Source of the DNA: Halanaerobiales bacterium
Lineage (GTDB): Bacteria; Bacillota; Halanaerobiia; Halanaerobiales; JADQBU01
NCBI GenBank assembly: GCA_016278435.1
Contig: JADQBU010000416.1
Location: forward strand, 1-24,000
Reading direction: 5' to 3'
Length of the DNA: 24,000 nucleotides
This document shows positions 1 to 19,002 of this stretch, in pieces. Position numbers and translations under genes: made by a program. The notes under the pieces were generated by a model. That model made no database searches. It was given only the letters and a program-made list of their open reading frames with translations, and was not told the origin of the DNA. The first letter of the stretch is position 1. Every line of letters starts with the position of its first letter.

Positions 1-272
1 CTATCTATTTCTTTTTTCACTGCTTCTCTAATCGTCTCAGTATTACCATAAAGAGTAGCACTGGCTCCCAGGCACTGTTCTGCCGCTTCACACCACTCAG
101 CACATCCCATATTAAACCTGGGGTTTACCACTTTTCTACCACATTCGGGACAATTCCTCACCAGATCCGTCTTTATAAATTCCACCATATAACCACAGCC
201 GGGGCATTCCTTTTCATTAATATCATCAGGCGTCCAATATCTGCTATCCTGACCGGGACATTTTAATGACAT
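1..272 (-). CDS. Cysteine-rich zinc-ribbon protein, N-terminal part only (gene runs off the left edge); possibly the N-terminus of an HD-type phosphohydrolase
   Basis: Absent from the ORF track because there is no stop in the window. Reverse strand from ATG 272..270 reads MSLKCPGQDSRYWTPDDINEKECPGCGYMVEFIKTDLVRNCPECGRKVVNPRFNMGCAEWCEAAEQCLG... and stays open to position 1. GGAGGTGG SD (complement of 279..286) lies 6 nt upstream. Paired CPxC-type cysteines. Product family is from memory only. Confidence 0.6.
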   Translation of the reverse strand, partial: MSLKCPGQDSRYWTPDDINEKECPGCGYMVEFIKTDLVRNCPECGRKVVNPRFNMGCAEWCEAAEQCLGASATLYGNTETIREAVKKEID

Positions 273-371
273 AAGTTTCCACCTCCAAAATAATTTGGGC
301 AGGAAATTACTCTACTATCATTATGCCACCTATCAGGCTAAAAAACTATGATGAATGTCACAGAGTAATAC

Positions 372-1529
372 TTAAATTGCATGATATTCACTTTCCAGTA
401 CAGTTTCACCAACATTTTTAAGTCCACCAATTATCCTGCTGATAACTTTGTTGGCTCCTTCTATCGATAATCCAGGTAATAATATAAGGTATTGATTTTT
501 ATTCCAGCGAGTTATGATATCTCCCTTGCGTAAGTTGTTCTTCAGGGCATTAGCCATAAATTCCATTTTACTGTTTATATCATCATTACCCTTAAAGGTC
601 AGCGAACAGATTATAGCCGGAATATGATTTCTTTCCCGTTTCCTCTCCTCAAGTTTATATAACATCCTGAAAATATCAGGCTCACAGAAGAAAGCGCCAT
701 CAACTTTCTGCCTGTTTTTTAATTGCTCCTGTATATTTAAGATACCTTCTGAATCTTCAGATGTTTCACCGTGAATTTTTTTATAAAGGTCCTGCATAGC
801 CGGTAGTGGTCTAATTTCCAGTTCCCGGTAAAATAATGTAGATGCATATTCATAGTGAGCCCGGGCCTGGGCAGTTTTGCCTTCCTCCAGTAATGCCTCC
901 AGATAACCAAGGTGAATTTTTTCTTCCAGTGGTTCAATCTGAAAAGCCGTACGGCAAAGTGTTATTATTTCAGAATTTTTGTTAAATTGTTTTAAAAGTT
1001 CAATCTGCTGTAAAATACTTTCTGTATATAACCAGTGGTAATTATTTCTAAAAGATATTACCCAGTTATCATATGGTAACTCCATTAAATAATCACCTTT
1101 ATAAATATTAAAAGCATTCCTGTATATATCAATCGCCTGTTGAGGAGCAGTCTCAATATTATTGTAAGCCTGTTGACAGAGATTTTCAAATTCTTCAACA
1201 TCCAGCCAGAATTTTGAATTTATATTAAACCCATATCCACCCTGACTACTATTTATGTAAGGTATGGTAGATTTGAAATCTTCTGGTATTAGTAATTTTC
1301 TCAAGCGGTAGACCAGATTGGTAAGGGCATGTTTAGGGTCACTGAAGTCCATTTCCGGGAATAAATTCTCCATGATTACCTCGGGGTGAATATTCCTACC
1401 ACGATTTGAGATTAAATATTTAAAAAGAATCCAGGGCTTGTCATTAGTTTTTTCAGCCTCCAGTAATGAGTCTTTATTTCTTTTAATCATAAATTGGCCC
1501 AGTGTGTAAATTTCTAATACATTATCCAA
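372..1529 (-). CDS. SARP/BTAD-family transcriptional activator (OmpR-type winged helix + BTAD/TPR) fused to a C-terminal degenerate GGDEF-like domain
   Basis: 385-aa ORF with TTG start and GGGGGGTGA SD 7 nt upstream. The N-terminus LEIYTLGQFMI...LFKYLISNRGRNIHPEVIMENLFP...LTNLVYRLRKLL matches the SARP wHTH pattern. WLDVEEFENL...AIDIYRNAFNIYKGDYL...EIRPLPAMQDLYKKI matches BTAD. The C-terminus RKGDIITRWNKNQYLILLPGLSIEGANKVISRI aligns to RxxD-x5-GGDEF-AILLP of diguanylate cyclases, with GGDEF replaced by NKNQY. Confidence 0.8.
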   Translation of the reverse strand: MDNVLEIYTLGQFMIKRNKDSLLEAEKTNDKPWILFKYLISNRGRNIHPEVIMENLFPEMDFSDPKHALTNLVYRLRKLLIPEDFKSTIPYINSSQGGYGFNINSKFWLDVEEFENLCQQAYNNIETAPQQAIDIYRNAFNIYKGDYLMELPYDNWVISFRNNYHWLYTESILQQIELLKQFNKNSEIITLCRTAFQIEPLEEKIHLGYLEALLEEGKTAQARAHYEYASTLFYRELEIRPLPAMQDLYKKIHGETSEDSEGILNIQEQLKNRQKVDGAFFCEPDIFRMLYKLEERKRERNHIPAIICSLTFKGNDDINSKMEFMANALKNNLRKGDIITRWNKNQYLILLPGLSIEGANKVISRIIGGLKNVGETVLESEYHAI

Positions 1530-1564
1530 CTGAGTTCACCCCCCAAAAAAGTAAATTTTTGCAT

Positions 1565-1635
1565 AAAAATTAACCCCTTCTTTAGTAGAATTATATCACA
1601 AAGCAAGGACCTGGTCTACTATTTTAAGGGGTTAA
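1565..1635 (-). terminator. Long imperfect hairpin plus T-run downstream of the 166-aa repeat-protein gene
   Basis: TTAACCCCTT (1570..1579) pairs with AAGGGGTTAA (1626..1635). Inner TAGTAGA/TCTACTA arms extend the stem. On the minus strand it is followed by TTTTTAT (complement of 1563..1569). It sits between the stop at 1679 and the regulator start at 1529. Confidence 0.4.
1590..1618 (-). promoter_or_regulatory. Candidate sigma-A promoter for the SARP-like regulator (extended -10)
   Basis: Minus strand reads TAGACC (1618..1613), 17 nt spacer, TGaTATAAT (TG 1598..1597, TATAAT 1595..1590). It lies inside the loop of the hairpin above. The region is AT-rich, so a chance match is possible. Confidence 0.3.
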
Positions 1636-1678
1636 ATCAATTTATATTTTGAATTTTTTTAACATTCTATTGTATATT

Positions 1679-2179
1679 TCAGGAATTATTGTCAGTAAGT
1701 ACATTTTCTGGACTTGAAAAAATATCAATTGAAGTTCTAATACTTACATTGGACTGCAAGATATTGCCATTACCCGAACTCATCTGTACCGTTGTTATAC
1801 CTGTAGCATTGGTAAAAGCATTGCCTCCAATAGTATTATACCTGCTAACATATGTATCATGTGATGAAACATTACTTATAGAAGCCCTGATCTCCTGTGT
1901 TTTTACATCATCGGGAATTACATCAGAACTACTATACCCTTCAAAACTACTGTTAGCCTGCATAATATTACCATTCCCCGCCACCATCTGAACCATGAGT
2001 CCTCCAGTAACATCCTCAAGAGCAGTATCACTGACTTGATTAAACTGGCTTGTATAAGTCTCATAACTTTCAACATTAGATAGCTCAGCTATCATATCCT
2101 GTGGAGCTGCTGCAACTGAAAAAGCCAACGATACAACTACCAGTAGACACATTACAATAATGGAAATTAGTTTTTTCAC
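1679..2179 (-). CDS. Secreted 2-repeat N/Q/G/S-rich protein (repeat-family paralogue A), candidate fibre/amyloid subunit
   Basis: 166 aa with GTG start and AAGGAGGC SD 8 nt upstream. Signal peptide MKKLISIIVMCLLVVVSLAFSVAA|AP. Two ~45-aa repeats: SNVESYETYTSQFNQVSDTALEDVTGGLMVQMVAGNGNIMQANSS (nt 1946..2080) and SNVSSHDTYVSRYNTIGGNAFTNATGITTVQMSSGNGNILQSNVS (nt 1742..1876). Confidence 0.85.
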   Translation of the reverse strand: MKKLISIIVMCLLVVVSLAFSVAAAPQDMIAELSNVESYETYTSQFNQVSDTALEDVTGGLMVQMVAGNGNIMQANSSFEGYSSSDVIPDDVKTQEIRASISNVSSHDTYVSRYNTIGGNAFTNATGITTVQMSSGNGNILQSNVSIRTSIDIFSSPENVLTDNNS

Positions 2180-2270
2180 GGCTAAATGCCTCCTTTTTCT
2201 GCTGGTTTTTTATTTTAAAAAAATTATTATTACTCTAATAATAAAACATGTCCTTTTATTTATCTTCTTC

Positions 2271-2299
2271 ATTATACCATAGGATATGGGAAAAATCTA
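2271..2299 (-). promoter_or_regulatory. Candidate promoter for the 166-aa repeat-protein gene (extended -10)
   Basis: Minus strand reads TAGATT (2299..2294), 17 nt spacer, TGgTATAAT (TG 2279..2278, TATAAT 2276..2271), about 90 nt upstream of the GTG at 2179. Confidence 0.4.
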
Positions 2300-2325
2300 C
2301 ACTTTTTCGAAAATAATTTATAATT

Positions 2326-2365
2326 TGTGATTAATATGTGATTTAATTATGATGTAAACATGAAT
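2326..2365 (+). promoter_or_regulatory. Four heptamer direct repeats at exact 11-bp periodicity (candidate SARP binding array) in the divergent intergenic region
   Basis: TGTGATT (2326..2332), TGTGATT (2337..2343), TATGATG (2348..2354), CATGAAT (2359..2365). A further TGTGATT lies at 2420..2426. The last phased repeat is followed by 8 nt and then TATTTT (2374..2379). Confidence 0.4.
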
Positions 2366-2543
2366 ATTCCCAGTATTTTACTGTTATTTATTGTAATATT
2401 ATCTTATTTCCTCATGCTGTGTGATTGAATTTTATTCAAAATTAAATTAATATGAGATTTTTAGATGATAACCCTGAGATGTTTTCTTGTTACACTTATA
2501 ATAAGTTGAAGAATTAAAGATACCCGGAAGAGGGTGAACATAG

Positions 2544-2777
2544 ATGAATGTCCAGAATGGTATTTGTCCAATAAATGGCCTGCGGTGTAATTCCACCTTT
2601 AATATACGTGTAATATATCGTGATAATACCAGCTGGCAGGGAGAAATACAGTGGCTGGAAGGTAAACAAACCAGATACTTCCGCAGTCTCCTGGAGATGA
2701 TCATGTTGATGAATGAGGCCATGAAAACCACTGACCAACCACAGGCTAACTTTGCTTTTAGAAACTGGGATTCATAA
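2544..2777 (+). CDS. Small cytoplasmic hypothetical protein (77 aa) with an SWQG...FRS motif
   Basis: Best of three overlapping ORFs here: AGAGGGTG SD about 8 nt before the ATG, and same strand as the downstream cluster. The motif FNIRVIYRDNTSWQGEIQWLEGKQTRYFRSLLEMIMLMNEAM resembles small uncharacterised clostridial proteins (from memory). No signal peptide. Confidence 0.5.
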   Translation: MNVQNGICPINGLRCNSTFNIRVIYRDNTSWQGEIQWLEGKQTRYFRSLLEMIMLMNEAMKTTDQPQANFAFRNWDS

Positions 2778-2921
2778 ATCATAAGTATATAAAAATCATA
2801 AAAACTTTCTTTTTAAGGAGGTGAGGGGCCGGTAAGAGATGTCCGATTGGAATTAAAAAGTAATTTTCTCTGTCACTGTATTAAGTTAAAACATCTTTTA
2901 AAAACAAAAGGAGTGTATTAA

Positions 2922-3611
2922 ATGAAAAAATTATTGATTCTGGGTGTAATGGTTATGTTTGTACTGGCTCTGGCTCTGCCAGTAGCAGCCAGATCTGATG
3001 GTGACCTTGATGCCACAATAGGTGCAATGGAAGTAGTTGCTGTTTATAGTAATGAAGAAGCCCTTTTCATTGATAAAACTGACTTAGGGTTCGGAGTTGG
3101 AATTGGAGTTCACGGTGATTATTTGAGCGGTTTCCTGGTAGGTGGAGGATATTATCATGACTTTGACCTCGGTTACTGGGAAGATACATTTGCCCTGTTG
3201 AAAGTTGAGGCAACCGGCCCGGTCAGTAAAGAAGATTACGGAATCAGATTTGATAAAATTGATGACGAAGCCTTCGAAAATGCAACCGGTGTTACAACAG
3301 TTCAGATGTCTGCCGGTAATGGTAACATTCTCCAGTCTGCACAAAATGTTCTAGTCTTGAATGATGTTTGTGATGCAGACCTGCAAGAAGTTAATGCTAA
3401 AATTTATAAAACCGTATCTTTTGACGATTACGACAAGCGTTTTGACAAAATTTCTGGAGAAGCTTTCCAGAATGCAACAGGTATTACCACTGTTCAGATG
3501 TCTTCCGGTAACGGCAATATTCTCCAGGCCGGTCTCAATGTTCAGGTCGAACTCCCGAATTTTGTATCTGATGTCGACGGAATGGGAGATTACACAGTAG
3601 TTACCTATTAA
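2922..3611 (+). CDS. Secreted 2-repeat N/Q/G/S-rich protein (repeat-family paralogue B), candidate major fibre/amyloid subunit
   Basis: 229 aa with AAAGGAG SD. Signal peptide MKKLLILGVMVMFVLALALPVAA|RSD. Gly/aromatic-rich N-terminal region LGFGVGIGVHGDYLSGFLVGGGYYHDFDLGYW. Two repeats: DYGIRFDKIDDEAFENATGVTTVQMSAGNGNILQSAQNV (3234..3350) and DDYDKRFDKISGEAFQNATGITTVQMSSGNGNILQAGLNV (3423..3542). Confidence 0.9.
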   Translation: MKKLLILGVMVMFVLALALPVAARSDGDLDATIGAMEVVAVYSNEEALFIDKTDLGFGVGIGVHGDYLSGFLVGGGYYHDFDLGYWEDTFALLKVEATGPVSKEDYGIRFDKIDDEAFENATGVTTVQMSAGNGNILQSAQNVLVLNDVCDADLQEVNAKIYKTVSFDDYDKRFDKISGEAFQNATGITTVQMSSGNGNILQAGLNVQVELPNFVSDVDGMGDYTVVTY

Positions 3612-3644
3612 TATAAGTATTTTTAAACTCTTGGGTAAAGTGAA

Positions 3645-3670
3645 CAGGCGGGGTTAAACTGCCCCGCCTG
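3645..3670 (+). terminator. GC-rich 9-bp hairpin just after the subunit gene (attenuator or RNA-stabilising stem; no clear U-tract)
   Basis: CAGGCGGGG (3645..3653), 8-nt loop, CCCCGCCTG (3662..3670). Followed by AATCATAAAAAT, which is not a T-run. Confidence 0.3.
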
Positions 3671-3703
3671 AATCATAAAAATACCTGTTGGGAGTGACAT
3701 GAT

Positions 3704-4390
3704 ATGAAGAGTATTAAAGTTGTTTTCCTGTTTATACTAATATTACTAATAACCAGTTATGTTGCCAGTGCAGGGACGGTAACCTTTAAAGTATCTACTA
3801 TGGGGTTACGTATGAATACAGAGATTGAAAGTTATACAGAAATTCAATTTCGAGGAGTAGTAAAACAGAAATTAGATATTAGCTGTGGTTCAGCTGCCCT
3901 GGCTACAATCTTCCAGTATTATTATGGAGACCCGGTAGAAGAAGAAGCTATCATTGAAAGTATGGTCAATGGCAGAACTAAAGAAGAAATTATAGCAGGT
4001 GAAGGTTTTTCATTACTGGAACTTAAAACCGCTGCGGAAAAATGGGGTTATTCAGCTTTTGGTCTCAGCGGTTCCCTTGCTGCCCTGGCCCAGCTCAGTA
4101 TTCCCTCAATAGTCCTTTTGGAAACCGGTGATATTCCACACTTTGTAGTAGTCAGGAAAGTTCTGAAGGACAGCATTCTTGTTGCCGATCCTGCAATGGG
4201 TAATATAACTATTTCAAAATCAGATTTTATTAAGCAGTGGAATGGCATTCTGCTGGCAATAGAAGGCAAACAGCAACCAGTTTCAAATTATCAGAAATAT
4301 ATGCCACTGACTGCTCCGACCAGGCTAGAGGTTAGTAGATTCAACAGAAATAACTGGAGAGTAATACCCTTTATTCCATCAGAATTTTAA
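3704..4390 (+). CDS. Stand-alone, signal-peptide-bearing C39-family cysteine peptidase (FapD-like architecture)
   Basis: 228 aa. Signal peptide MKSIKVVFLFILILLITSYVASA|GT. C39 pattern VVKQKLDISCGSAALATIFQYYYG with Q55 and C61 (TGT 3884..3886). IPHFVVV with H146 (CAC 4139..4141). ILVADP with D162. No fused ABC-transporter domains. Confidence 0.85.
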   Translation: MKSIKVVFLFILILLITSYVASAGTVTFKVSTMGLRMNTEIESYTEIQFRGVVKQKLDISCGSAALATIFQYYYGDPVEEEAIIESMVNGRTKEEIIAGEGFSLLELKTAAEKWGYSAFGLSGSLAALAQLSIPSIVLLETGDIPHFVVVRKVLKDSILVADPAMGNITISKSDFIKQWNGILLAIEGKQQPVSNYQKYMPLTAPTRLEVSRFNRNNWRVIPFIPSEF

Positions 4391-4465
4391 TTTATTTTAA
4401 ACTTCTTAAATTTTAGATTAGAAATTTAAACATTTTATTCAAGTTGAGTAAAAGGAGGAAAAATA

Positions 4466-4855
4466 ATGAAAAATATTTTCAAGTTTTCAACTTTAATTTT
4501 AGTCTCAGTGTTTATGTTTATCCTGGGGGTTTCTGCTCTGGCACTTGATTTGCCGGCTGACTTTACAACACTCTCAAATGATGAACTATCTGAAGTTAGT
4601 GGTCAGGGGCGTTTTTTTATCAGAAATATCGATAATCTCGATTTTGATGCTGATATTGATAGTGCACAATTCACCTATAGTGATATATCCGATGGTGCTT
4701 TTAAGGATGCCTCAGGTTTAATTTCCGTAATTCAGGTTCCCGGAGATCGTAACTGGATTTGTGTCTACCTTGATCTTGATCTAAGTATAATAAATACTTA
4801 TGGTACTACTACAATAAATCTTTCAGACCAGCAATTCGAGTTACCTCCACTTTAA
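4466..4855 (+). CDS. Small secreted protein with one degenerate copy of the cluster repeat
   Basis: 129 aa with AAAGGAGGA SD. Signal peptide MKNIFKFSTLILVSVFMFILGVSALA|LD. QFTYSDISDGAFKDASGLISVIQVPGDRNWICVYLDLDL (4667..4783) aligns to the AFxNATGxTTVQMSSGNGNILQ repeat. Confidence 0.75.
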   Translation: MKNIFKFSTLILVSVFMFILGVSALALDLPADFTTLSNDELSEVSGQGRFFIRNIDNLDFDADIDSAQFTYSDISDGAFKDASGLISVIQVPGDRNWICVYLDLDLSIINTYGTTTINLSDQQFELPPL

Positions 4856-4868
4856 AGTTTTCTAAACT

Positions 4869-4909
4869 GGTAATCCCCCTTTTTACCGGGGGGATTACCT
4901 CTATTTTAA
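4869..4909 (+). terminator. Rho-independent terminator-like hairpin
   Basis: GGTAATCCCCC (4869..4879), 9-nt loop, GGGGGATTACC (4889..4899), then TCTATTTTAAG. Confidence 0.6.
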
Positions 4910-4989
4910 GTAAATATTTAATGATATTTTTTTTGCAGGAATTTTCCATTTTTTTGCGAACTATATATATACCAATATAAGAAAGGGGT

Positions 4990-5865
4990 ATGAAAATGAT
5001 TAAAAAAACTGCAATTATTTTCTGTCTAGCTATTATGTTAATACTGGTACCTCAGATGGCCGGAGCCAAAGTGCCAGTCGAGTTACAGTGGGATGTTACA
5101 TATACCCATAGTTCCAACAACCAGCTTTTATTAAATGGTTATACTGTTTATAATGTTATAACTGTTGGTGAAATTGAAGTTACTAAAGTCAAAAGAGACA
5201 TTATAATGCCTTCCTTAATTGTTAGATGCGGCTCTCCGGAGAAAAATATTGAATTTATTATTCCTTACAGTTACCGGCGGGATTATGTTTTAGATCGTGA
5301 TAACATTAATGGAGATGAATATGAAGAATCCACTGTTGATGGTATGGGACTGGGAGATATCAGGATCAATTTGAATGCAGCAGCACCTATAAAAAATACC
5401 ACTGTAACCCTGGGAGTTAAAACTACAACAGGAGTCAGTGATGTAGGTGATGATGAAATTCCACTGGGAAGCGGTCACCTGGGAATCAGAGCTGGAGTGT
5501 CCCATATGATGCCTCTGGACCCGGTAGTGTTATTTGGAAGTGCTAATTACTACTGGAATCTGGAAAATGATGCTGTTGACCCCGGAGATACTATTCAGTA
5601 TTCATTAGGAATGGCCTATGCCCTTAACCCCAGATTTTCCATTAATGCCAGGCTAGAACAAGCCGTTACCACACAAACTAGAGAGGATGGTGTAAGACAG
5701 CCTGAAACAGGTGTAAATTCCGCTATGTTCTATGTGGGCGGTAGCTTTGCTGATGGGGGAAGCACTTCATCTTATGACCTGTCAGTGGGGATTGGTATGA
5801 CAGAAGATGCTCCTGATATGTCAATCCAGTTCAGCCGTCCCATCGAAATTAAAAGACAGAATTAA
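4990..5865 (+). CDS. Outer-membrane beta-barrel protein, 'MetA-pathway/transporter'-like (PF13557-like) family
   Basis: 291 aa. Signal peptide MKMIKKTAIIFCLAIMLILVPQMAGA|KV. Alternating-hydrophobic strands. Motifs GMGLGDIRINL, LGVKTTTGVSD and IPLGSGHLGIRAG are typical of this barrel family (from memory). The start may be the second ATG (4996), which has better SD spacing. The C-terminus ...IQFSRPIEIKRQN lacks a terminal aromatic residue. Confidence 0.7.
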   Translation: MKMIKKTAIIFCLAIMLILVPQMAGAKVPVELQWDVTYTHSSNNQLLLNGYTVYNVITVGEIEVTKVKRDIIMPSLIVRCGSPEKNIEFIIPYSYRRDYVLDRDNINGDEYEESTVDGMGLGDIRINLNAAAPIKNTTVTLGVKTTTGVSDVGDDEIPLGSGHLGIRAGVSHMMPLDPVVLFGSANYYWNLENDAVDPGDTIQYSLGMAYALNPRFSINARLEQAVTTQTREDGVRQPETGVNSAMFYVGGSFADGGSTSSYDLSVGIGMTEDAPDMSIQFSRPIEIKRQN

Positions 5866-5888
5866 ATAATATAACAATTTATAGAATA

Positions 5889-5925
5889 GGTGCTGCCTTA
5901 AGTTTGGGGCAGCACCGTTTATTTT
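5889..5925 (+). terminator. Rho-independent terminator of the plus-strand cluster
   Basis: GGTGCTGCC (5889..5897) pairs with GGCAGCACC (5908..5916), followed by GTTTATTTT. Confidence 0.7.
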
Positions 5926-5928
5926 AAT

Positions 5929-5976
5929 AAAAGAAAAAACTGTCACCAGACCTCTGATAGAGAGATCCTGTGACAG
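5929..5976 (-). terminator. Rho-independent terminator of dfx
   Basis: CTGTCAC (5940..5946) pairs with GTGACAG (5970..5976), with extra internal pairing. On the minus strand it is followed by TTTTTTCTTTT (complement of 5929..5939). Confidence 0.5.
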
Positions 5977-6001
5977 TTATTAATCAATCACTTATGTAAT
6001 T

Positions 6002-6376
6002 TTAAGCTTTCCAGAGACCATGTACATTACAGTACTCTCTGACATCTTCTATCTCTTCTTTATCTACAGCAAACTCTGCTTTAGGCTCTTCACCTGGCTT
6101 TAACTCTGCCCGTAGAACCTTATCAGCAGTTAATACTTCGATAGAAGTAATGTAGTGCTTTTCTTCCATGGGATGCAGGGTAGAACCAACTATTACTTCT
6201 ACACCTTCATCGGTCTCCTCTACCATCGGTACATGTTTTTCAACTGTATAATCTTCTGTTTTAGCTTCCAGTTTTTCCATATCTTCTCCACAGCAGACTA
6301 ACGATTCTGTGTTACCATAAATAACCTCAACCACATTACCACATACATTACATTTGTAAATATCTCTCAATTTCAC
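6002..6376 (-). CDS. dfx: Desulfoferrodoxin (2Fe superoxide reductase)
   Basis: 124 aa. N-terminal desulforedoxin cysteines YKCNVCGNVVEV...LVCCGEDM. SOR centre EKHVP...GSTLHPMEEKHYI...EYCNVHGLWKA. GTG start with AAGGAG SD. Confidence 0.95.
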   Translation of the reverse strand: MKLRDIYKCNVCGNVVEVIYGNTESLVCCGEDMEKLEAKTEDYTVEKHVPMVEETDEGVEVIVGSTLHPMEEKHYITSIEVLTADKVLRAELKPGEEPKAEFAVDKEEIEDVREYCNVHGLWKA

Positions 6377-6415
6377 TTAAATCACTCCTTATCAGTAATG
6401 ATTGCTACTATTAAT

Positions 6416-6444
6416 AGTTTAATATACTTTTTACGGTTTGTCAA
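6416..6444 (-). promoter_or_regulatory. Candidate sigma-A promoter of dfx
   Basis: Minus strand reads TTGACA (6444..6439), 17 nt spacer, TAAACT (6421..6416), about 40 nt upstream of the GTG at 6376. Confidence 0.45.
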
Positions 6445-6458
6445 GAATTAATTCTTGA
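6441..6458. promoter_or_regulatory. Perfect 18-bp palindrome overlapping the dfx -35 (candidate operator)
   Basis: TCAAGAATTAATTCTTGA is its own reverse complement. It overlaps the last codons of the upstream gene and the TTGACA -35. Confidence 0.35.
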
Positions 6459-6974
6459 TTTTATTTCTTTTATGTATTGTGGTTCAAAGGTTAGATTTTG
6501 AAGATTACTCTCTATTATTGATTTACCCCCTTTAATACAGGTTAAAAGATTATAAACAGCAACCTCATAATCTGCCTTGACCACCTCTTTTAAATAAGGA
6601 TCTATACTTCTGGCATAGGCCAATACCTTCCGGGCATTTTCAATCACCTGGGCTGGAACATCTACTAATTTTTTTAAATCCTTCTTTACTCTGAAATTAT
6701 TCTTTGAATTCAGGTCATATGCCTGAACATCTTCATCCATCAGTTGCAAAAATTTTTTTTCAGCCTTCTCCAGCTGAATAAGTAATCCCTGAAATTGAAC
6801 TTTTAGATCATCACTCCATTCATTCTGACTAACACTGAATGCAAGTTTAACCAGAGAAACACCCAGGGCTCCATTTAATGCTATTGTAGTACCTCCAGCC
6901 GGGACAGGTGTCATTTGACTACTAATCTTTTGGTTTAACTCCTGGATAGAATTTTCCTTTAACATAAAAACCAT
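6441..6974 (-). CDS. Cyclodeaminase/cyclohydrolase-family protein (FTCD C-terminal-like)
   Basis: 177 aa. SSQMTPVPAGGTTIALNGALGVSLVKLAF resembles the P-x-P-G-G-G-S...A...GAL motif of this family, and the rest is helical. The true start is probably the second ATG (6965), which has better SD spacing to GAGAGG. Confidence 0.65.
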   Translation of the reverse strand: MVFMLKENSIQELNQKISSQMTPVPAGGTTIALNGALGVSLVKLAFSVSQNEWSDDLKVQFQGLLIQLEKAEKKFLQLMDEDVQAYDLNSKNNFRVKKDLKKLVDVPAQVIENARKVLAYARSIDPYLKEVVKADYEVAVYNLLTCIKGGKSIIESNLQNLTFEPQYIKEIKSRINS

Positions 6975-7952: not shown

Positions 7953-8204
7953 TTGAAAAATATGAGTATCGCTAATAAACTTAATCTTATTATTATCAGC
8001 ATGTCCGTAAAACAGAAGGTTTTAGACAATATCGGCCAGGACTTCATTGAGATGAATATATATGAAGAATATATTGATTATCTAATGAAGGTTAATCTAA
8101 ATATACTAGATTCAAAATCTTCTAAGGATGTTTATAAATCCTTAATTGACGATTATATAAAGGGTAATCTAAGAAAAGCAGAATTTATTTTAAAGAATCT
8201 ATAA
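7953..8204 (+). CDS. Hypothetical small protein (83 aa)
   Basis: TTG start with AGGAGG SD 8 nt upstream (alternative ATG at 7962). No recognisable motif. Confidence 0.5.
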   Translation: MKNMSIANKLNLIIISMSVKQKVLDNIGQDFIEMNIYEEYIDYLMKVNLNILDSKSSKDVYKSLIDDYIKGNLRKAEFILKNL

Positions 8205-9284
8205 TATCTTTTTAACCCTATCTCTGCCAGAGTTCTTTGCTAGATAGAGGGCATTATCAGCTCGGGTTAAGAAAATTTTTATACTATCATTGTTTTGAAG
8301 TTGGGTTACACCCAGGCTGACTGTAATTTTATTTTTCACAGGTGGTATTCTTAGCTGAGCTATTCTTTTTCTAATCCTCTCTGCAACCTTTATGACATCT
8401 ATCAAATTAGTTTCTGTTAAAAGTATAGCAAACTCCTCTCCCCCTATTCTGGCTGCCATATCCTCTTTTCTTGTTTCCTCCTTAAAAACTTTACCTACTT
8501 CTATTAAAACTTCATCTCCAACATTATGTCCATAGGAGTCATTAATATTTTTAAATTTATCTATATCGGCCATAACCAGATAAATCGAATGTGATTTTCT
8601 CTGGGCCAGAGAATACATTCTTTCCAGATATTCCATAAAGTATCTCCGGTTGAAAATTCCTGTTAATTCATCTGTCTTTATCATCTTTTTCATCTTAAGA
8701 TGAAGTGCTTGTAATTCTTTTGATTCCTTCATTGCTCTGAGAATATAGTATGTAATTAATGTATAGGCCGGTATTGTAAACAATTGAATTGCCAAACGGA
8801 GCACCATGTTATCAAGTAGTGGGACACCATAAGCCCTGTTAAGTACCATTGGGATAGCCAGAGCTGAAACCAGTAAATGAGAAACAGTAATCGAAATAAA
8901 AACTGCTTTTAAACTCATTTTATTGAACATATAATTGTATATATAGCCAGCCATAAATCCCCTTAAAATCGTAATCAGGGTAAAGACAAACATATACTCC
9001 AGGTCACTATGCCAGATAAAAAAAGAAATTAGATCAACCAGCCCACCTATAACTCCCCCCCATAGGGGCCCCAGTAAGATACCTCCAAAAATGATGACAG
9101 GAGGACGCAGACTCAGTCTTGCTGCTTCTTCCAGAGGATATATGGAAAACATTATACTGTTACCAGGGTTATCAAAAAATACAGCTATACAGACCAGAAT
9201 AAGTAATACTTTTAAGGTATAAATCCAGTTAAAATTTCCCGGACGAACATCATTATTTTTCGTTTTTGTACCAATAAATAACAT
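8199..9284 (-). CDS. Membrane-bound diguanylate cyclase: N-terminal ~6-TM domain resembling ECF-transporter S components, plus GGDEF domain (GGEEF, I-site RKED)
   Basis: 361 aa. RKEDMAARIGGEEFAILL (GGEEF = nt 8430..8444), preceded by DELTGIFNRRYF and ADIDKFKNINDSYGHNVGDEVL. The N-terminal RPPVIIFGGILLGPLWGGVIGGLVDLISFFIW is ECF S-component-like (from memory). Confidence 0.9.
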   Translation of the reverse strand: MLFIGTKTKNNDVRPGNFNWIYTLKVLLILVCIAVFFDNPGNSIMFSIYPLEEAARLSLRPPVIIFGGILLGPLWGGVIGGLVDLISFFIWHSDLEYMFVFTLITILRGFMAGYIYNYMFNKMSLKAVFISITVSHLLVSALAIPMVLNRAYGVPLLDNMVLRLAIQLFTIPAYTLITYYILRAMKESKELQALHLKMKKMIKTDELTGIFNRRYFMEYLERMYSLAQRKSHSIYLVMADIDKFKNINDSYGHNVGDEVLIEVGKVFKEETRKEDMAARIGGEEFAILLTETNLIDVIKVAERIRKRIAQLRIPPVKNKITVSLGVTQLQNNDSIKIFLTRADNALYLAKNSGRDRVKKIL

Positions 9285-9572: not shown

Positions 9573-9818
9573 TTTCTTCTCTCCCTTGAACTTAATTTAT
9601 ATAATGTTAATTCTACATAATTACTGAAATTCCTTTTTTTAGGTTATTATTTACAAGACACATTACAAATTCATTAGGACTTAAGTACTATTCTACTAAA
9701 AAACTCCATTTACCGCAAATAAAATTTCTTTTAACACCTGGTTAATGAAGGTCTTTAGGTCTTTATAACGAATATTGGTAATATAAGTATATTTACTGGA
9801 ATAAACGGGGTGTTCTGT

Positions 9819-11321
9819 ATGAAATTTAAAAAGGAAACCAGGATTACTTTTTTATATATAATAATCGGACTCGGCTGGATATTCTTTTCCGATTATTTTC
9901 TATTATTATTTTTTAAAGACCAGAACATGATTAACAGGTTTCAATCTTATAAAGGAATATTCTACGTTTTAATTACTGCCTATCTATTTTATCTTATTCT
10001 CCATAGAACCTTCAAAAATATCAGAATGCATCAACGAAAACTAAAATCAAGTCATGAATTACTGGCCTTAGATAATGAGCAATTTAGAATGTTAAATAAG
10101 AAAATCAGCAAAGCTAATCAGGAATTACAGAGACAGAAAGAAAAATTAAGTGAAAGTTATCAATTGCTTGAGGCAGATAACGAAGAATTTAAAGAACTCA
10201 ATAAAGAGTTGGAAGAATCTTACAACGAAATTAATGAGCTGGCAAATAATATAGAGAAAATGATCAACATAACTTCAGGGTTGAACAGTTTATCGGTAGA
10301 TAATACGGACCTTTTTCTTTCTGATCTCTTAAATACAGCTCTAAAATTAATTGATAAAGCTAATCAGGGGGCAATCGCCAGAATAATCGATGATAATTTA
10401 GTTTTTATTGATTCAGTTGACTATGAGATTGAAAAATTAAATCAACTTAACTTGAAAAAAAGTTTCGTAAATAAAATTAATGGTATTAAAACATTAACTG
10501 AGCTTTTTAAAGATGATATCTCAGCATTTGAAAACAGTAAATTTTATGAGAGATATCAAAAACTATTGCGAGAAATAAATGATTCTATAATTGTAAGTTT
10601 TAATAATGGTCAGGAAAAAGCAGGGGTTATCTGTTTATTGATAGATAAGCGTCACAAACAAAAATTTGATGAAAATAGCCATAGAACCATGTCAGCTTTC
10701 AGCAGTCTGGCCAGTGTTTTTTTCAAGATTCAAAAATATCATCAAGTTGAGGAAGAATTCCAGGAAGAATTAATCGTTGCTATTACCGGTTTTCTTGAAT
10801 TACATGATACATATACAGATGGGCATTCCAGGGAAGTTGCTGAATTATCAAGAAAAATCGCCAGAGAAATGAACCTTTCTGACCAGGAAGTAGAAAAAGC
10901 GTACTGGGCCGGTATGATCCATGATATCGGTAAAATCTTAATTCCTGAAACTATTTTAGTTAAAAATGGTCCTTTAACCAGTGTAGAATATAATAAGATA
11001 AAAAAACACCCCATATGGGGTTATCAGGCTTTAAAACATTCTGGTAGGTTGAAGGAAATAGCAGAAATAATTCTATACCATCATGAACGCTGGGATGGAA
11101 GTGGTTATCCTTATGGATTAAAAGAAGATGAAATACCTTTGATAGCCCGGATTTTATGTGTGGCTGATAGCTGGAATGCTATGCGCTCTAATCGACCTTA
11201 CCGCTCACATCTACCTATAAATAAAGCTTTAGAAGAACTTAGAGATAATAATGGAAGTCAATTTTGTCCAGAAGTAGTAGAGGCCTTCTTTGCAATAATG
11301 GGAGAACAGATTGCAATTTAA
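9819..11321 (+). CDS. HD-GYP domain c-di-GMP phosphodiesterase with N-terminal TM segments, coiled coil and a sensor-like domain
   Basis: HDTYTDGHSREVA...GMIHDIGKILIP...HHERWDGSGYPYGL...ADSWNAMRSNRPYR. The ORF track starts at GTG 9810, but ATG 9819 has the better SD (GGGGTG). Confidence 0.9.
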   Translation: MKFKKETRITFLYIIIGLGWIFFSDYFLLLFFKDQNMINRFQSYKGIFYVLITAYLFYLILHRTFKNIRMHQRKLKSSHELLALDNEQFRMLNKKISKANQELQRQKEKLSESYQLLEADNEEFKELNKELEESYNEINELANNIEKMINITSGLNSLSVDNTDLFLSDLLNTALKLIDKANQGAIARIIDDNLVFIDSVDYEIEKLNQLNLKKSFVNKINGIKTLTELFKDDISAFENSKFYERYQKLLREINDSIIVSFNNGQEKAGVICLLIDKRHKQKFDENSHRTMSAFSSLASVFFKIQKYHQVEEEFQEELIVAITGFLELHDTYTDGHSREVAELSRKIAREMNLSDQEVEKAYWAGMIHDIGKILIPETILVKNGPLTSVEYNKIKKHPIWGYQALKHSGRLKEIAEIILYHHERWDGSGYPYGLKEDEIPLIARILCVADSWNAMRSNRPYRSHLPINKALEELRDNNGSQFCPEVVEAFFAIMGEQIAI

Positions 11322-11572: not shown

Positions 11573-12649
11573 TTATAATTGTTGTGAGTTATCACTTGCA
11601 CGCTTTACTATCGATATTATTAACACAATCCCTGGTATCATAATTTGAAAGGGAAAAGAATAGATAAAATAGTTTTCGACAGACCAGCGTATTGTTTCAA
11701 ATGTACTGTCATACAACCAGATTGCTACTGTTATTACTAAAGCGGAGACCGGTAGTACAAACAGCTTATATCTGTTTAGATTAAAAACCTGAACCAATCC
11801 CTGAGTTGCCGCATAAATACAGATAGAAACCTTGCACATGCCTCCTATTAAGTAGTTTACAGCTACCACAGCATCAAGATTATACCCGGGTATTAGTCTG
11901 GTGGTGATTGTTGAAGGAAAAATTGTTTCGAATAACATATCAGCTCCCAGGATAAAGAAATTCCTTAGCAAGATTATTAATAAAACCGTACCCATAACAA
12001 ACAAGGCCAGAAATGATGTCGTTAGGAGATCTTTTTTCCTATTCAAGGCTGGAAAGACCATCAAAAATATTACCAGTTCACCAAAGGGAAACCCCAGCAG
12101 AACAATTGATGTTTTTATAATCGGACCCAGTCCCCTGACAAGCATCGGTTTATAACTGTTAATATCAAAAAATTGAAATAAAAATGCCGTAACCAGAATT
12201 ACCATCACCGGGATAATCGGAATGAAGAATTCTGCTGTTCTGGCCATAACCTCCAGCCCGCTGCGCACCGCATAAGCTATGGTTATTATCATTATTATAA
12301 TTGTAAAAGTAATTGGGGTCTCGGGATAATCTGTTATGACGATATATTCTCCAAAATTTCTGATAACGATGGCGGCCAGGTGCATAAAATACCAGATATA
12401 TAATAGGGCAATAGCTTTACCGATAATCCTTCCGAAGTTTTTCTCCAGGATACCGATTAGTGTCTCCCCGGAATTGAGGTTAGCAATCAATACATAACCG
12501 CCTAATAAAAAAAAACCCCCCACCCAGCTGGCCAGATAAGCTATCCAGCAGTCCTGTTTAGCTGCCGACGCCGGGTTTATTACAACCCCAAACAAAAAAC
12601 CCATTATCAAAACAGCTAGTTGAAATCTGGATATTTTCTCGACTAACAC
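11573..12649 (-). CDS. Spore germination receptor B subunit (GerAB/GerKB-family permease-like)
   Basis: 358 aa with about 10 TM segments. The N-terminus ISRFQLAVLIMGFLFG... is typical of Ger(x)B. It is the last gene of a gerA/gerC operon. Confidence 0.85.
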   Translation of the reverse strand: MLVEKISRFQLAVLIMGFLFGVVINPASAAKQDCWIAYLASWVGGFFLLGGYVLIANLNSGETLIGILEKNFGRIIGKAIALLYIWYFMHLAAIVIRNFGEYIVITDYPETPITFTIIIMIITIAYAVRSGLEVMARTAEFFIPIIPVMVILVTAFLFQFFDINSYKPMLVRGLGPIIKTSIVLLGFPFGELVIFLMVFPALNRKKDLLTTSFLALFVMGTVLLIILLRNFFILGADMLFETIFPSTITTRLIPGYNLDAVVAVNYLIGGMCKVSICIYAATQGLVQVFNLNRYKLFVLPVSALVITVAIWLYDSTFETIRWSVENYFIYSFPFQIMIPGIVLIISIVKRASDNSQQL

Positions 12650-12654
12650 ATGTA

Positions 12655-12876
12655 TTACCTCCCTGGCAGCAAACCAATAATCTTCTCAATTAATACAGCC
12701 GGGCTTTGAGGTGCCCTGTCCAGTATTAAGAGGATACCAATAGTTAAACCGCAAAGCATAATAATTGAATATAAGATTACTGCCACCGGTTTATTGTTTA
12801 ACCCCAGTAACTCCTTTAAATCTAACAAGGTAATTAAGATAAATACAGCTATTAATAGAAATAACATATTAATCAC
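12655..12876 (-). CDS. Small two-TM membrane protein within the ger operon (possible germinant-receptor D-type subunit)
   Basis: 73 aa with two hydrophobic helices. Its ATGA overlaps the gerC stop by 4 nt, and it ends 6 nt before the gerB start. Confidence 0.6.
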   Translation of the reverse strand: MINMLFLLIAVFILITLLDLKELLGLNNKPVAVILYSIIMLCGLTIGILLILDRAPQSPAVLIEKIIGLLPGR

Positions 12877-14138
12877 TTCCCAGCATCTGTATAAGGCTGC
12901 CCGGATTTTTTAATCAAAGATGAACTAGTAGTTGTCCACTGAACCTTAATTTCCACCGGAGCATTACTGAAGACCTCTTCCCAGTTATCCTTTATTTTCT
13001 CCCAGTACTCATAATAATCACCGTAGACTATTTTTACAAAGCGGAAGAAATCACTCTGGTAATCCTGTTGGGCTTTGTCAACTGCATCCTGGATATTCTT
13101 TTTAATCACAGCCTTCACCCTACTTTCCATCTCCTTAACCATTTCCGGTGTTGTCAGATCACCTTTCCCCTGCTGGTCGGCCATTCTTCCCGAAGCTTTA
13201 ACCTCTATCATTAACTTTAACTCATCATCCCTGACCTCTCCCTTAATATTCCCGCTGGATTTAACTATTTCAAAGGCCACCTTTTTACCCACTTCAAGGG
13301 GATTGTCGACGTTAATAATCCCGCTTTGCACCTCATCGATGGCAAAAATCAATCCCCTGGTTTCAAAGGGATCCAGATAGCCTTTCAGTTTACCCTTTTT
13401 TATTACAGCAGTTCCCTCAATCTTTAGATCCTTGATTTCCAGTTTGCCTTCATCCTGTTTTTTACCTCCACTATCTTCTTGGGAATCTTTATTTTCCTGT
13501 TTCTGAATAACCCCGATGGCCAGTGAATTGCCCCGGATACGAATGCGCCTGACGGCATCAAAAAATGTGGTCTTTTTTATCTTGGCCAGGGCATCATTGT
13601 TTTTAAGTATTGACCTAATATGCAAGGCCGGTATATTCTCTAACTCACTCTGGGCCTGAAGAACCTCCCGGGCGGTAATCCCCCGGGTAATTAAAAGGTC
13701 GGCCATCCTTTCTGTCTCTTTATCCCTTTCAAATAAATCGAAGATATCTGTAACCCCTTCCCTGGCAACCTCTTCCCCGATAATCATTAACTGTACATGG
13801 CTGAAATAAGCCTTTCTGTTTAAGGTTGTCAACTGATTCCTGATGGCTGTGAAAACCGTCTCTCCGGTGGAGGAATAAACCCAGACCGGGTCTTCCGTAC
13901 TACCCTGACTTATAGCTTTAATAGTACCCGGTTTGACCATCTGCAGGGTTAACAAAATATCTCCCCTATCTGTCCTGTCAAACCCCACGGCGGTGACTAT
14001 GGCTATTTCTGATAAATCAACATTATTCCAGCAACCTGATAAAAGAAAAGTCAAACTGAACAGTATAATAAACAAAATGATCTGCTTGTTTTTTATTTGG
14101 ATTTTTGTTTTAACGATTTTTATCATCTTTAACACCAC
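12873..14138 (-). CDS. Spore germination receptor C subunit lipoprotein (Ger(x)C family)
   Basis: Lipobox FLLSGC followed by WNNVDLSEIAIVTAVGFDR, typical of GerAC/GerKC. The true start may be ATG 14126. Confidence 0.9.
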   Translation of the reverse strand: MVLKMIKIVKTKIQIKNKQIILFIILFSLTFLLSGCWNNVDLSEIAIVTAVGFDRTDRGDILLTLQMVKPGTIKAISQGSTEDPVWVYSSTGETVFTAIRNQLTTLNRKAYFSHVQLMIIGEEVAREGVTDIFDLFERDKETERMADLLITRGITAREVLQAQSELENIPALHIRSILKNNDALAKIKKTTFFDAVRRIRIRGNSLAIGVIQKQENKDSQEDSGGKKQDEGKLEIKDLKIEGTAVIKKGKLKGYLDPFETRGLIFAIDEVQSGIINVDNPLEVGKKVAFEIVKSSGNIKGEVRDDELKLMIEVKASGRMADQQGKGDLTTPEMVKEMESRVKAVIKKNIQDAVDKAQQDYQSDFFRFVKIVYGDYYEYWEKIKDNWEEVFSNAPVEIKVQWTTTSSSLIKKSGQPYTDAGK

Positions 14139-14211
14139 TTTGTCTTGACCGGCTTAACTTAACGGATTGCTTTATCAAGCAATGATATAGATTACATGGT
14201 TGCTCATTTTT

Positions 14212-17923: not shown

Positions 17924-18036
17924 GATTAATGCTCCTTTCTATATATTAACAAGATTAGATTTTAAAGTGGAATTATTTAACTAACTGGCCCGGGCTACAA
18001 AACCCGGGCAGAATGTGTTATAATGAAATTGGTAGG

Positions 18037-18285
18037 TCAGCCGATAGCTTCATATAATTTTTTGAAGTTATCAGGCTGGCTTTTGTATTCTTCAATAACT
18101 TCATTCCTTCTTTCCTCAGGTAAATTACTATTCACAACTAATAACTGCCGGTCTTCATCTTCATTTATAAAAAAACCATCAACTGAATCTAATTCGGCAT
18201 CCACAACTGTAAGAGATCCTACTGTATTAACTTTATTAACAAAACTTAAACTTTCATATTTACTCTTGGGTTTAATACCCATCAT
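18037..18285 (-). CDS. Hypothetical prophage protein (82 aa, acidic)
   Basis: Its start overlaps the upstream stop (TAATG at 18285), suggesting translational coupling. Same strand as int. No recognised motif. Confidence 0.5.
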   Translation of the reverse strand: MMGIKPKSKYESLSFVNKVNTVGSLTVVDAELDSVDGFFINEDEDRQLLVVNSNLPEERRNEVIEEYKSQPDNFKKLYEAIG

Positions 18286-18557: not shown

Positions 18558-18575
18558 TTCTACTTAATGGAATAT

Positions 18576-18878: not shown

Positions 18879-18973
18879 TATTTTCCTCCCTTTTCAGTAT
18901 GTTTTAATTCATCCTTATTCATTATTATATATCTATACTTAATATATGTCAAGTTATATCATTCATGTTTATA

Positions 18974-19002
18974 TTGTTTTTTATTTATATATGTTCTATA
19001 AT
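18974..19002 (+). promoter_or_regulatory. Candidate promoter of the Cro-like gene
   Basis: TTGTTT (18974..18979), 17 nt spacer, TATAAT (18997..19002). GGGAAGTGA SD follows, then the ATG at 19024. Confidence 0.4.

Follow-up and report, generated by a model that had tools for sequence, protein, structure and literature searches.

Five copies of a repeat of about 40 aa, spread over three secreted proteins, were noted in a preliminary description of a 24,000-nucleotide stretch of DNA (hereafter the window) from a Halanaerobiales bacterium (contig JADQBU010000416.1), and the question raised by this locus is whether these repeats belong to an amyloid fibre of the Fap (functional amyloid of Pseudomonas-like) or the curli type, as had been proposed on the basis of Asn/Gln-rich cross-beta stacking motifs. 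The presence of the repeats was examined first. Translation of the five intervals of the preliminary description (1742-1876 and 1946-2080 on the minus strand, and 3234-3350, 3423-3542 and 4667-4783 on the plus strand) gave the reported sequences, for instance, AFENATGVTTVQMSAGNGNILQS at 3234-3350 and AFQNATGITTVQMSSGNGNILQA at 3423-3542, and the observation was thus confirmed, with four strong copies and one divergent copy. In a 40-aa register, the units are located at 1934-2053 (repeat 1, the more divergent copy; TALEDVTGGLMVQMVAGNGNIMQAN) and 1730-1849 (repeat 2; NAFTNATGITTVQMSSGNGNILQSN) on the minus strand within a 166-aa protein, at 3240-3359 (repeat 1) and 3432-3551 (repeat 2) on the plus strand within a 229-aa protein, and at 4667-4786 on the plus strand (GAFKDASGLISVIQVPGDRNW) within a 129-aa protein. 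The repeat period is 68 aa in the 166-aa protein and 64 aa in the 229-aa protein. All three proteins begin with a typical Sec signal (MKK/MKN, a hydrophobic core, and then A-x-A), as judged by inspection.

The two copies in the 229-aa protein share 28 of 40 residues and 87 of 120 nucleotides, the differences falling 7, 8 and 18 at codon positions 1, 2 and 3, respectively, and nine of the 28 conserved residues use different codons. This pattern is that of old divergence under purifying selection, in agreement with the preliminary description. A repeat HMM was then constructed only from the 12 homologues outside the window and was used to scan the six-frame translation of the whole window. The four strong copies were detected with domain E-values of 3.5e-20 and 2.8e-23 (repeats 1 and 2 of the 229-aa protein) and of 1.9e-7 and 1e-21 (the 166-aa protein), while the fifth copy was only marginal (sequence E 0.006, covering half a unit), and no other copy was found in the 24 kb. 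The fifth copy, however, becomes convincing at the family level, because the mature parts of 11 orthologous small proteins, after removal of signal peptides, matched the repeat-unit alignment with an hhalign probability of 97.4% (E 1.4e-11 over 37 columns).

The relationship to known amyloid repeats was next examined by profile comparison, and the proposed interpretation was supported as far as Fap is concerned. A precomputed Pfam FapBC (PF27129) hit is carried by the 229-aa protein and by 12 of its 13 retrieved homologues, the 166-aa protein of the window among them, and 12 of these 14 family members hit the NCBIfam FapB model (best E 5e-6; 9e-5 for the 229-aa and 0.007 for the 166-aa protein). 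The family profile retrieved three-repeat proteins that score 1e-14 to 1e-21 on FapB, eight of these ten also scoring on FapC, and hhalign of the family against the three-repeat FapB-validated proteins gave 98.9% (E 4e-17). The profile was also aligned to repeat 3 of Aeromonas FapC (E 1.4e-3), although it did not significantly hit the FapC PDB sequence directly (E 2.9). The position-for-position alignment given in the preliminary description (A-S-G-N-I-G-V-N-V-A-A-G-x-x-N against A-T-G-I-T-T-V-Q-M-S-S-G-N-G-N) agrees with the FapC repeat sequences of PDB 9nqd/9u4u.

In contrast, the curlin part of the proposal was not supported, since hhalign against CsgA gave only 0.15%. Curli (CsgA/CsgB with CsgEFG) share the general concept of secreted, imperfect Asn/Gln/Gly-rich repeats that stack as cross-beta layers in a biofilm fibre, but the repeat length (about 20 aa) and the export machinery (CsgG) are different, and no Csg homologues appear among the window proteins scanned. 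A non-stacking predicted fold, together with a lack of profile similarity, had been set beforehand as the refuting condition; the AF2 models obtained were of low confidence (pLDDT 45.7 and 40.7), and Foldseek gave no significant match, FapC being only a top-ranked, non-significant hit, so that the stacking fold is inferred.

The decisive context, which was overlooked in the preliminary description, is that FapD-like, FapE-position and FapF-like genes follow directly after the repeat proteins. The 229-aa protein (2922-3611, plus strand), consisting of a Sec signal, a Gly/Tyr/Asp-rich N-terminal region of about 70 aa and the two repeats, is a candidate for the major fibre subunit, while the 166-aa protein (1679-2179, minus strand), transcribed divergently from the main operon, is a candidate for a minor subunit or nucleator. 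Within the divergent intergenic region there is a 77-aa ORF (2544-2777, plus strand) with an SD-like GAGGGTG upstream, which is called as a gene on the Logan contig, but it has no Pfam, PDB or plasmid match and is absent from the related loci, and its membership in the system is uncertain. Between the genes for the 229-aa subunit and the peptidase, a GC-rich 9-bp hairpin without a U-tract on the plus strand (3645-3670, plus strand) was identified, which is inferred to be possibly a transcript-stabilising or attenuating element that raises the subunit-to-machinery ratio.

The next gene (3704-4390, plus strand) encodes a 228-aa periplasmic C39 cysteine peptidase of FapD type with its own Sec signal (Pfam Peptidase_C39 3e-24; NCBIfam FapD 2e-38, 131.8 bits, and FilB 5e-28), which is 34% identical to Aeromonas FapD (E 1e-32) and retains Cys61, His146 and Asp162 in alignment with the catalytic residues of PCAT1 (PDB 4ry2). 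It is followed by the gene for the 129-aa small secreted protein (4466-4855, plus strand) with a Sec signal, a leader-like motif, one divergent Fap repeat and a beta-rich tail, and, after a 12-bp hairpin with a T-rich tail (4869-4899, plus strand), by the gene for a 291-aa FapF-like outer-membrane beta-barrel (4990-5865, plus strand). The latter matches FapF of PDB 5o67 (E 1.3e-14, query 33-282 against chain 39-329), the NCBIfam FapF model (1.2e-19, profile positions 127-414 of 420) and Pfam Phenol_MetA_deg (7e-9), but it is barrel only, with about seven mature residues before the first conserved strand, and thus has neither coiled coil nor plug helix. A terminator-like hairpin (5889-5916, plus strand) closes the operon.

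On the other side of the subunit genes, a transcription regulator of winged-helix plus BTAD (SARP) type with a C-terminal degenerate GGDEF-like domain is encoded (372-1529, minus strand; Pfam BTAD 3e-17, GGDEF 7e-5, Trans_reg_C 9e-4). In this domain, RKGD is retained at the I-site position whereas GGDEF is replaced by NKNQY, the register matching, by inspection, RKED-MAARI-GGEEF of the true cyclase at 8199-9284. Orthologues of the regulator sit beside the operon at 43-49% identity in the related Halanaerobiales loci L008-L011 and at 24% in the Limnochordia locus L005, and RKGD is conserved in the L010 and L011 orthologues. The order of regulator, FapBC, C39 peptidase, small protein and barrel recurs in the related loci L002, L005, L006 and L008-L012. 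The relatives lie in Halanaerobiales, Limnochordia and other Bacillota MAGs, the closest ones being Halanaerobiales MAGs, and GerA, GerB and GerC genes are present in the window.

The most interesting component is the small protein in the FapE position. Straight after its Sec signal it carries the motif LSNDELSEVSGQG (4571-4609, plus strand; residues 36-48), which fits the pattern L-x-[DE]-x-E-L-x-x-[IV]-x-G-[MQA]-G conserved in all 11 aligned orthologues and in most further cluster representatives, with one (P0165) departing at E/L. This motif resembles the double-glycine leaders that are cleaved by the C39 peptidase domains of PCAT/AMS ABC transporters (bacteriocins, ComC, colicin V), keeping the positions L(-12), E(-8), L(-7), I/V(-4) and G(-2) in exact register, and is similar to those of lactococcin A (...SDEELSEANGG) and colicin V (...LNELDSVSGG). 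It differs from them in that position -1 is M, Q or A rather than Gly, with Gly at +1, that it lies after a Sec signal so that cleavage would be periplasmic rather than cytoplasmic, that no ABC transporter is present, and that the scores against leader models are below their cut-offs (TIGR01847 bacteriocin_sig E 0.14; lantibiotic and bacteriocin leader models E 0.004-0.1 for the orthologues). Canonical Aeromonas FapE carries an invariant D-x-E-L-x-x-L-R-G-R-Y in the same place. FapD activity is required for secretion, its target is unknown, and the first ~70 residues of FapE are missing from the mature protein (PMC5557850); the motif is proposed as a candidate recognition and cleavage site for the C39 peptidase. 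Homology of the small protein to FapE is nevertheless weak, since hhalign to Aeromonas FapE gave 12% (E 0.0024) and the orthologues gave only weak FapE hits (best E 0.001), which map consistently to FapE profile positions 182-227 of 247.

Compared with the Fap system of Pseudomonas and other Proteobacteria (fapABCDEF, including the FapB/FapC subunits, the FapD C39 peptidase, FapE and the FapF trimeric barrel), the subunit repeat is homologous (G-x3-V-[NQ]-x-[AS]-[AS]-G-x-G-N core), the components are Sec-dependent, a small protein with one Asn-rich repeat lies between the peptidase and barrel genes as FapE does, and the gene order is subunit, D, E, F. Each subunit, however, has two repeats, whereas the number in the literature is "almost invariably three" (PMC12822426), and the NQQxN part of the motif reads N-[IV]-L-Q-x-N. 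There is no FapA, the second subunit gene is transcribed divergently, the FapF-like protein is minimal, and the FapE-position protein is shorter (129 aa, compared with 219 aa in Aeromonas and a 247-position NCBIfam FapE profile) with a much clearer double-glycine-type motif. The host is a diderm Bacillota organism and not a proteobacterium. In addition, all the scores stay below the NCBIfam equivalog cut-offs (FapB, 22 bits against 190; FapD, 132 against 330; FapF, 70 against 700).

Other readings of the locus were considered but appear unlikely. That the proteins are BspA-type leucine-rich-repeat-like or other globular surface adhesins, resembling Fap repeats by convergence and forming no amyloid, is suggested by weak hits to Pfam LRR_5 (E 0.087) and to a designed LRR protein in the PDB (E 0.13), by a Bacteroidetes LRR surface protein that was reported by Dueholm 2013 as a false positive of their FapB/C HMM (PMC3792158), and by the AF2 models, which do not confidently show stacking. 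The LRR hits are, however, non-significant and below cut-off, a period of 64-68 aa with only two copies is not LRR-like, the profile-profile match to FapB-like proteins is at E 4e-17, and the conserved FapD, FapE-position and FapF neighbours argue for a Fap-type export pathway, so that this possibility is very unlikely. Even less likely is that the small protein is a bacteriocin-like or signalling peptide precursor processed by the C39 peptidase, with the repeat proteins being unrelated cargo or immunity factors; the leader-like motif and its weak leader-model hits are in line with this view, but the motif follows a Sec signal, the peptidase is a stand-alone periplasmic protein without an ABC transporter, the mature part of the small protein is a Fap-type repeat, and the gene set and order mirror fapCDEF.

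Somewhat more weight, although still little, can be given to a Fil-type or otherwise uncharacterised "C39 + FapF-like barrel" surface-fibre or pilus system, which shares the export machinery with Fap but whose fibre is not an amyloid. The peptidase and barrel also match NCBIfam FilB and FilC (4e-9), of the poorly characterised putative pilus system of Acinetobacter, FapD and FapF belong to larger families with many non-Fap members (PMC3792158), and Cupriavidus loci combine a C39 peptidase and a FapF-like barrel with GG-motif proteins, substrate-like proteins with L-x-x-[VQ]-R-G-G motifs being located next to the peptidase. No FapB/C repeats were seen by inspection among the Cupriavidus ORFs that were read. 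On the other hand, FapD and FapF score higher than FilB and FilC for both proteins (132 against 98 bits and 70 against 36 bits, respectively), and the cargo proteins carry FapB/C-family repeats, which are the amyloid core of FapC (PMC12392863).

Taken together, the region 372-5916 is best explained, with fairly high confidence, as encoding a compact Fap-type fibre secretion and assembly system in a diderm, spore-forming Bacillota organism. The analysis established two paralogous subunits each with two FapB/C-family imperfect repeats behind Sec signals, a FapD-like periplasmic C39 peptidase with an intact catalytic triad, a small one-repeat protein in the FapE position, a FapF-like outer-membrane barrel and a BTAD regulator conserved next to the cluster, whereas the mechanism, including cleavage, export, fibre formation and regulation, is inferred from sequence alone and by analogy. 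In this view, all five proteins would cross the inner membrane by Sec and stay unfolded in the periplasm, where the C39 peptidase would remove a short double-glycine-type propeptide (...ELSEVSG-Q-G...) from the FapE-like protein, thereby licensing or priming export, and the subunits would pass through the minimal FapF barrel, although the absence of FapA, coiled coil and plug leaves the gating unexplained. Each FapC repeat forms one Greek-key cross-beta layer (PMC12392863); here, each repeat would form one cross-beta layer outside the cell and the subunits would stack into an amyloid-like fibre with two layers per monomer instead of three, the one-repeat protein acting as the cell-proximal anchor or nucleator and the 166-aa paralogue as a minor or nucleating subunit. 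Expression of the system is probably tied to c-di-GMP, as the regulator has a degenerate GGDEF tail that retains RxxD, and a GGDEF cyclase and an HD-GYP phosphodiesterase lie 3-5 kb away.

The preliminary description of five copies of a repeat of about 40 aa in three secreted proteins was confirmed, since translation of the five intervals reproduced the repeat. Based on the ORF map, the copies are carried by three genes, encoding a 166-aa protein at 1679-2179 (minus strand) with two copies, a 229-aa protein at 2922-3611 (plus strand) with two copies, and a 129-aa protein at 4466-4855 (plus strand) with one degenerate copy. All three proteins start with Sec-type signal peptides, as judged by inspection. 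In a 40-aa register the units are located at 1934-2053, 1730-1849, 3240-3359, 3432-3551 and 4667-4786, with periods of 68 and 64 aa. The two copies in the 229-aa protein share 28/40 residues but only 87/120 nucleotides, and the differences at third codon positions (18) outnumber those at first and second positions (7 and 8), indicating old divergence under purifying selection, as had been proposed. A repeat HMM built without the window sequences detected the four strong copies at domain E-values from 2e-7 to 3e-23, while the fifth copy was marginal (E 0.006) and nothing else in the six-frame translation matched. At the family level, however, the fifth copy is real, because the mature parts of 11 orthologous small proteins matched the repeat-unit alignment by hhalign with a probability of 97.4% and E 1.4e-11.

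The reading of these repeats as Fap-like was supported, whereas the curlin relationship suggested together with it was not. A word-indexed search of 5.8 billion proteins identified only 14 relatives of the 229-aa protein, all with a signal peptide plus two repeats, and among these 14 members of the close family, 13, including both window subunits, carry a precomputed hit to Pfam PF27129, named FapBC. Twelve of the 14 weakly hit the NCBIfam FapB model, but the scores of the window subunits on this model were only 16-22 bits against an equivalog cut-off of 190. A full HMMER scan of 1.8 billion representative sequences with the family profile gave 394 hits, and among the best 150 of these the repeat number was two in 54 proteins, three in 50 and 4-14 in 45. 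Ten hits of roughly FapB/FapC size (192-265 aa) all scored on NCBIfam FapB (1e-14 to 1e-21), and eight of them also on FapC. Profile-profile comparison of the window family with these FapB-validated three-repeat proteins gave 98.9%, E 4e-17, aligning both repeats, and the profile also aligned to repeat 3 of a canonical Aeromonas FapC at E 1.4e-3. The FapC repeat sequences of PDB 9nqd/9u4u line up with the window repeat in the way that the preliminary description had proposed, G-N-V-G-V-N-V-A-A-G-Q-G-N-Q-Q against G-I-T-T-V-Q-M-S-S-G-N-G-N-I-L. Sequence searches of the PDB with the 229-aa protein and with the family profile gave no significant hit; FapC was returned at E 2.9, and hits to Rab GTPases at E ~0.03 are spurious, given their alignments. 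The same repeat family occurs in giant proteins found by the representative search and located outside the window, such as P0015 (3063 aa, 29 matched stretches) and P0016, P0018 and P0020 with 9-13 units, in which the motif is A-x-G-[IV]-x-T-V-Q-Q-N-N-G-D-N-N; this conflicts with the view that Fap-type repeats come almost only in threes.

The genes located downstream of the 229-aa subunit are the decisive evidence. The gene at 3704-4390 encodes a stand-alone C39 peptidase with its own N-terminal signal peptide (by inspection), for which the best NCBIfam hit, though below the cut-off, is FapD (2e-38), ahead of FilB. It is 34% identical to Aeromonas FapD (E 1e-32), and its Cys, His and Asp align with the catalytic residues of PCAT1. 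The gene at 4990-5865 encodes a homologue of FapF, the outer-membrane 12-stranded barrel (PDB 5o67, E 1.3e-14 over residues 33-282; NCBIfam FapF, 1.2e-19). The match, however, covers only FapF profile positions 127-414 of 420, and only about 7 mature residues precede the first conserved strand, so the protein has neither the N-terminal periplasmic coiled coil nor the plug helix that gate secretion in Fap systems; by contrast, Aeromonas FapF is 416 aa with an N-terminal heptad-like segment. No candidate for the chaperone FapA was found within 1-6000, but FapA is frequently absent from genuine fap operons (PMC3792158), and thus its absence is not disqualifying. Strong hairpins lie inside the operon at 3645-3670, after the subunit gene, and at 4869-4899, after the small-protein gene, and may set the stoichiometry between subunit and machinery transcripts. 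A 77-aa ORF at 2544-2777 (plus strand; MNVQNGICPINGLRCNSTFNIRVIYRDNTSWQGEIQWLEGKQTRYFRSLLEMIMLMNEAM…) with an SD-like sequence lies in the divergent intergenic region just upstream of the 229-aa subunit gene, but no homologue was found in Pfam, the PDB, the plasmid collection or the related loci. An Rfam scan of the whole window, including the 740-bp divergent intergenic region, also found nothing.

The order of regulator, FapBC, C39 peptidase, small protein and barrel recurs in a biogas-fermenter contig, a Limnochordia MAG, several Halanaerobiales MAGs and a Bacillota MAG. Two loci in Halanaerobiales MAGs (L010 and L011) each carry two tandem copies of the whole cassette of subunit, C39 peptidase, small protein and barrel, which echoes the whole-operon duplications reported for canonical Fap. 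The BTAD regulator at 372-1529 (minus strand) is conserved beside the operon. It ends in a degenerate GGDEF-like domain that reads RKGD-IITRW-NKNQY where a true cyclase has RxxD-x5-GGEEF, and RKGD is conserved in orthologues, which suggests, but does not show, a c-di-GMP receptor. The area is rich in c-di-GMP genes, as a membrane-bound GGDEF cyclase (8199-9284, minus strand) and an HD-GYP-type (HD_5) protein (9810-11321, plus strand) are encoded within 5 kb. The spore-germination genes gerA/gerB/gerC at 11573-15810, together with the taxonomy of the relatives, point to a spore-forming Bacillota host, most like Halanaerobiales, an order with an outer membrane, which fits a FapF barrel. In addition, a desulfoferrodoxin gene is located at 6002-6376, and a tyrosine integrase (16748-17923) and a 1317-aa protein (20013-23966), tentatively read from its sequence as phage tape-measure-like though no Pfam family matched it, indicate a prophage or its remnant at 16748-23966.

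The 129-aa protein occupies the position of FapE, the minor subunit encoded between fapD and fapF, and its architecture of signal peptide, processed-looking N-terminus and Asn-rich repeat fits FapE. Eleven orthologues align well, with a Sec signal, the motif L-x-[DE]-x-E-L-x-x-[IV]-x-G-[MQA]-G, one Fap-type repeat and a beta-rich tail in this order. The orthologues hit NCBIfam FapE only weakly (E 0.001-0.03), always on profile positions 182-227 in the C-terminal, repeat-like part of the profile, and the window protein itself gave no FapE hit. The motif follows the register of double-glycine leaders, in which hydrophobic residues at -12, -7 and -4, Glu at -8 and Gly-Gly at -2 and -1 are conserved. 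L(-12), E(-8), L(-7), I/V(-4) and G(-2) are kept in 9-11 of the 11 orthologues, and all 11 have I or V at -4, but position -1 is M, Q or A and is followed by an invariant Gly. Hits to bacteriocin and lantibiotic leader models were weak (TIGR01847, E 0.14, 12.9 bits against a cut-off of 15.7; mersacidin-type, 0.004; lacticin-481, 0.02).

For comparison, a complete canonical fapBCDEF operon was recovered at 2538-6921 of the Aeromonas locus L013, from record NZ_AP026896.1, which is labelled a plasmid of Aeromonas caviae but, given its size of 4.9 Mb, is evidently a chromosome. Its proteins gave their best NCBIfam hits on FapC (1e-50), FapD (3e-74), FapE (6e-12) and FapF (6e-111), all below the equivalog cut-offs. 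This FapE has an invariant D-x-E-L-x-x-L-R-G-R-Y at the same place after the signal peptide, and hhalign aligned the two motifs, though weakly (E 0.0024, 12%). The comparison covers only one canonical lineage, because the word-indexed search with the small-protein profile returned only 12 close relatives and that with Aeromonas FapE returned only Aeromonas-like sequences. Rouse et al. (2017) showed that the FapD catalytic Cys is required for secretion, that the target of FapD is unknown, and that the first ~70 residues of FapE are absent from the mature protein (PMC5557850), and a 2025 review still describes FapD as only "thought" to process FapE and FapF (PMC12822426). A search of the literature for a defined FapD cleavage site found none among the papers searched. 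The small protein of the window therefore offers a concrete candidate site, inferred from sequence alone.

Structure prediction with AF2 gave low-confidence models, with pLDDT 45.7 for the window protein (14-sequence alignment) and 40.7 for a four-repeat homologue, P0030 (12 sequences), each with 3-4 strands per repeat separated by disordered linkers. Foldseek searches of the PDB with both models gave no significant hit; FapC fibril chains ranked 1st and 3rd among beta-helix proteins, but at E 2.8-3.4. What the analysis establishes is thus the repeats, their FapB/C homology and the conserved neighborhood of FapD-like and FapF-like genes, while the stacking fold is inferred from homology to FapC, whose repeats each form one Greek-key cross-beta layer (PMC12392863; PDB 9u4u/9nqd), and the formation of extracellular amyloid fibrils and the cleavage of the small protein by the C39 peptidase are likewise inferred.

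Other assignments fit less well. Comparison of the family with E. coli CsgA by hhalign, using an approximate query sequence, gave a probability of only 0.15%, and the curli relationship was rejected. A BspA-type leucine-rich repeat was also rejected, since the LRR_5 match (E 0.087, 13.2 bits against a cut-off of 27.7) is below threshold and inconsistent with the repeat period and the gene context. The Acinetobacter Fil system is matched by both the peptidase (FilB, 98 bits against 475) and the barrel (FilC, 36 bits against 630), but far below equivalog level and with lower scores than FapD and FapF. In two Cupriavidus megaplasmid loci (L015, 3001-6918; L017, 2944-6873), a periplasmic C39 peptidase (FapD 1e-43, FilB 8e-37) lies upstream of a FapF-like barrel of 483-490 aa, and proteins with near-canonical leader motifs (KLDDVRGG in both loci, RLDKQRGG in L017) sit beside the peptidase. 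This looks like a related but distinct system of Sec, periplasmic C39 peptidase and barrel.

The Fap type of system is itself known, and the Pfam FapBC family already covers these proteins. Dueholm et al. (2013) found Fap only in Proteobacteria, and already noted a two-repeat FapC in Desulfohalobium (PMC3792158), while the 2025 review reports Fap/curli operons in other phyla "and even Bacillota" and stresses that FapB and FapC almost invariably have three repeats (PMC12822426). The new elements form a coherent variant, with two repeats per subunit, a minimal barrel, no FapA, a compact FapE-like protein with a leader-type motif, and a SARP/BTAD-GGDEF-like regulator, in diderm Firmicutes. A further, tentative reading, possible but less likely than not, is that this stripped-down operon exposes the missing step of Fap biogenesis, in that the FapD-type periplasmic C39 peptidase would recognize a double-glycine-type leader (E-L-x-x-[ILV]-x-G-x) placed directly after the Sec signal of the FapE-type protein, and that the same logic would hold in canonical Fap systems, given the motif of Aeromonas FapE. 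A two-layer monomer and a plug-less barrel would then represent the minimal functional Fap machine, and three repeats would not be a structural requirement for this amyloid.

Fap is one of the two model bacterial functional amyloids, and is currently described as an evolutionarily "fixed" system with three repeats per subunit, found mostly in Proteobacteria. The present locus and about a dozen relatives in Halanaerobiales, Limnochordia and other Bacillota show a natural minimal version, with two repeats per subunit, a barrel without coiled coil or plug and no FapA, which is useful for defining what the amyloid core and the secretion pore really need, and also for engineering short amyloid building blocks. 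The unusually clear C39 leader-like motif of the small FapE-position protein gives a specific candidate site for the cleavage by FapD, the substrate and site of which have been open since 2017 (PMC5557850), in this system and in canonical FapE. The locus also places a predicted Fap-type amyloid in outer-membrane-bearing Firmicutes, which bears on how surface-fibre systems were inherited or exchanged between diderm lineages.
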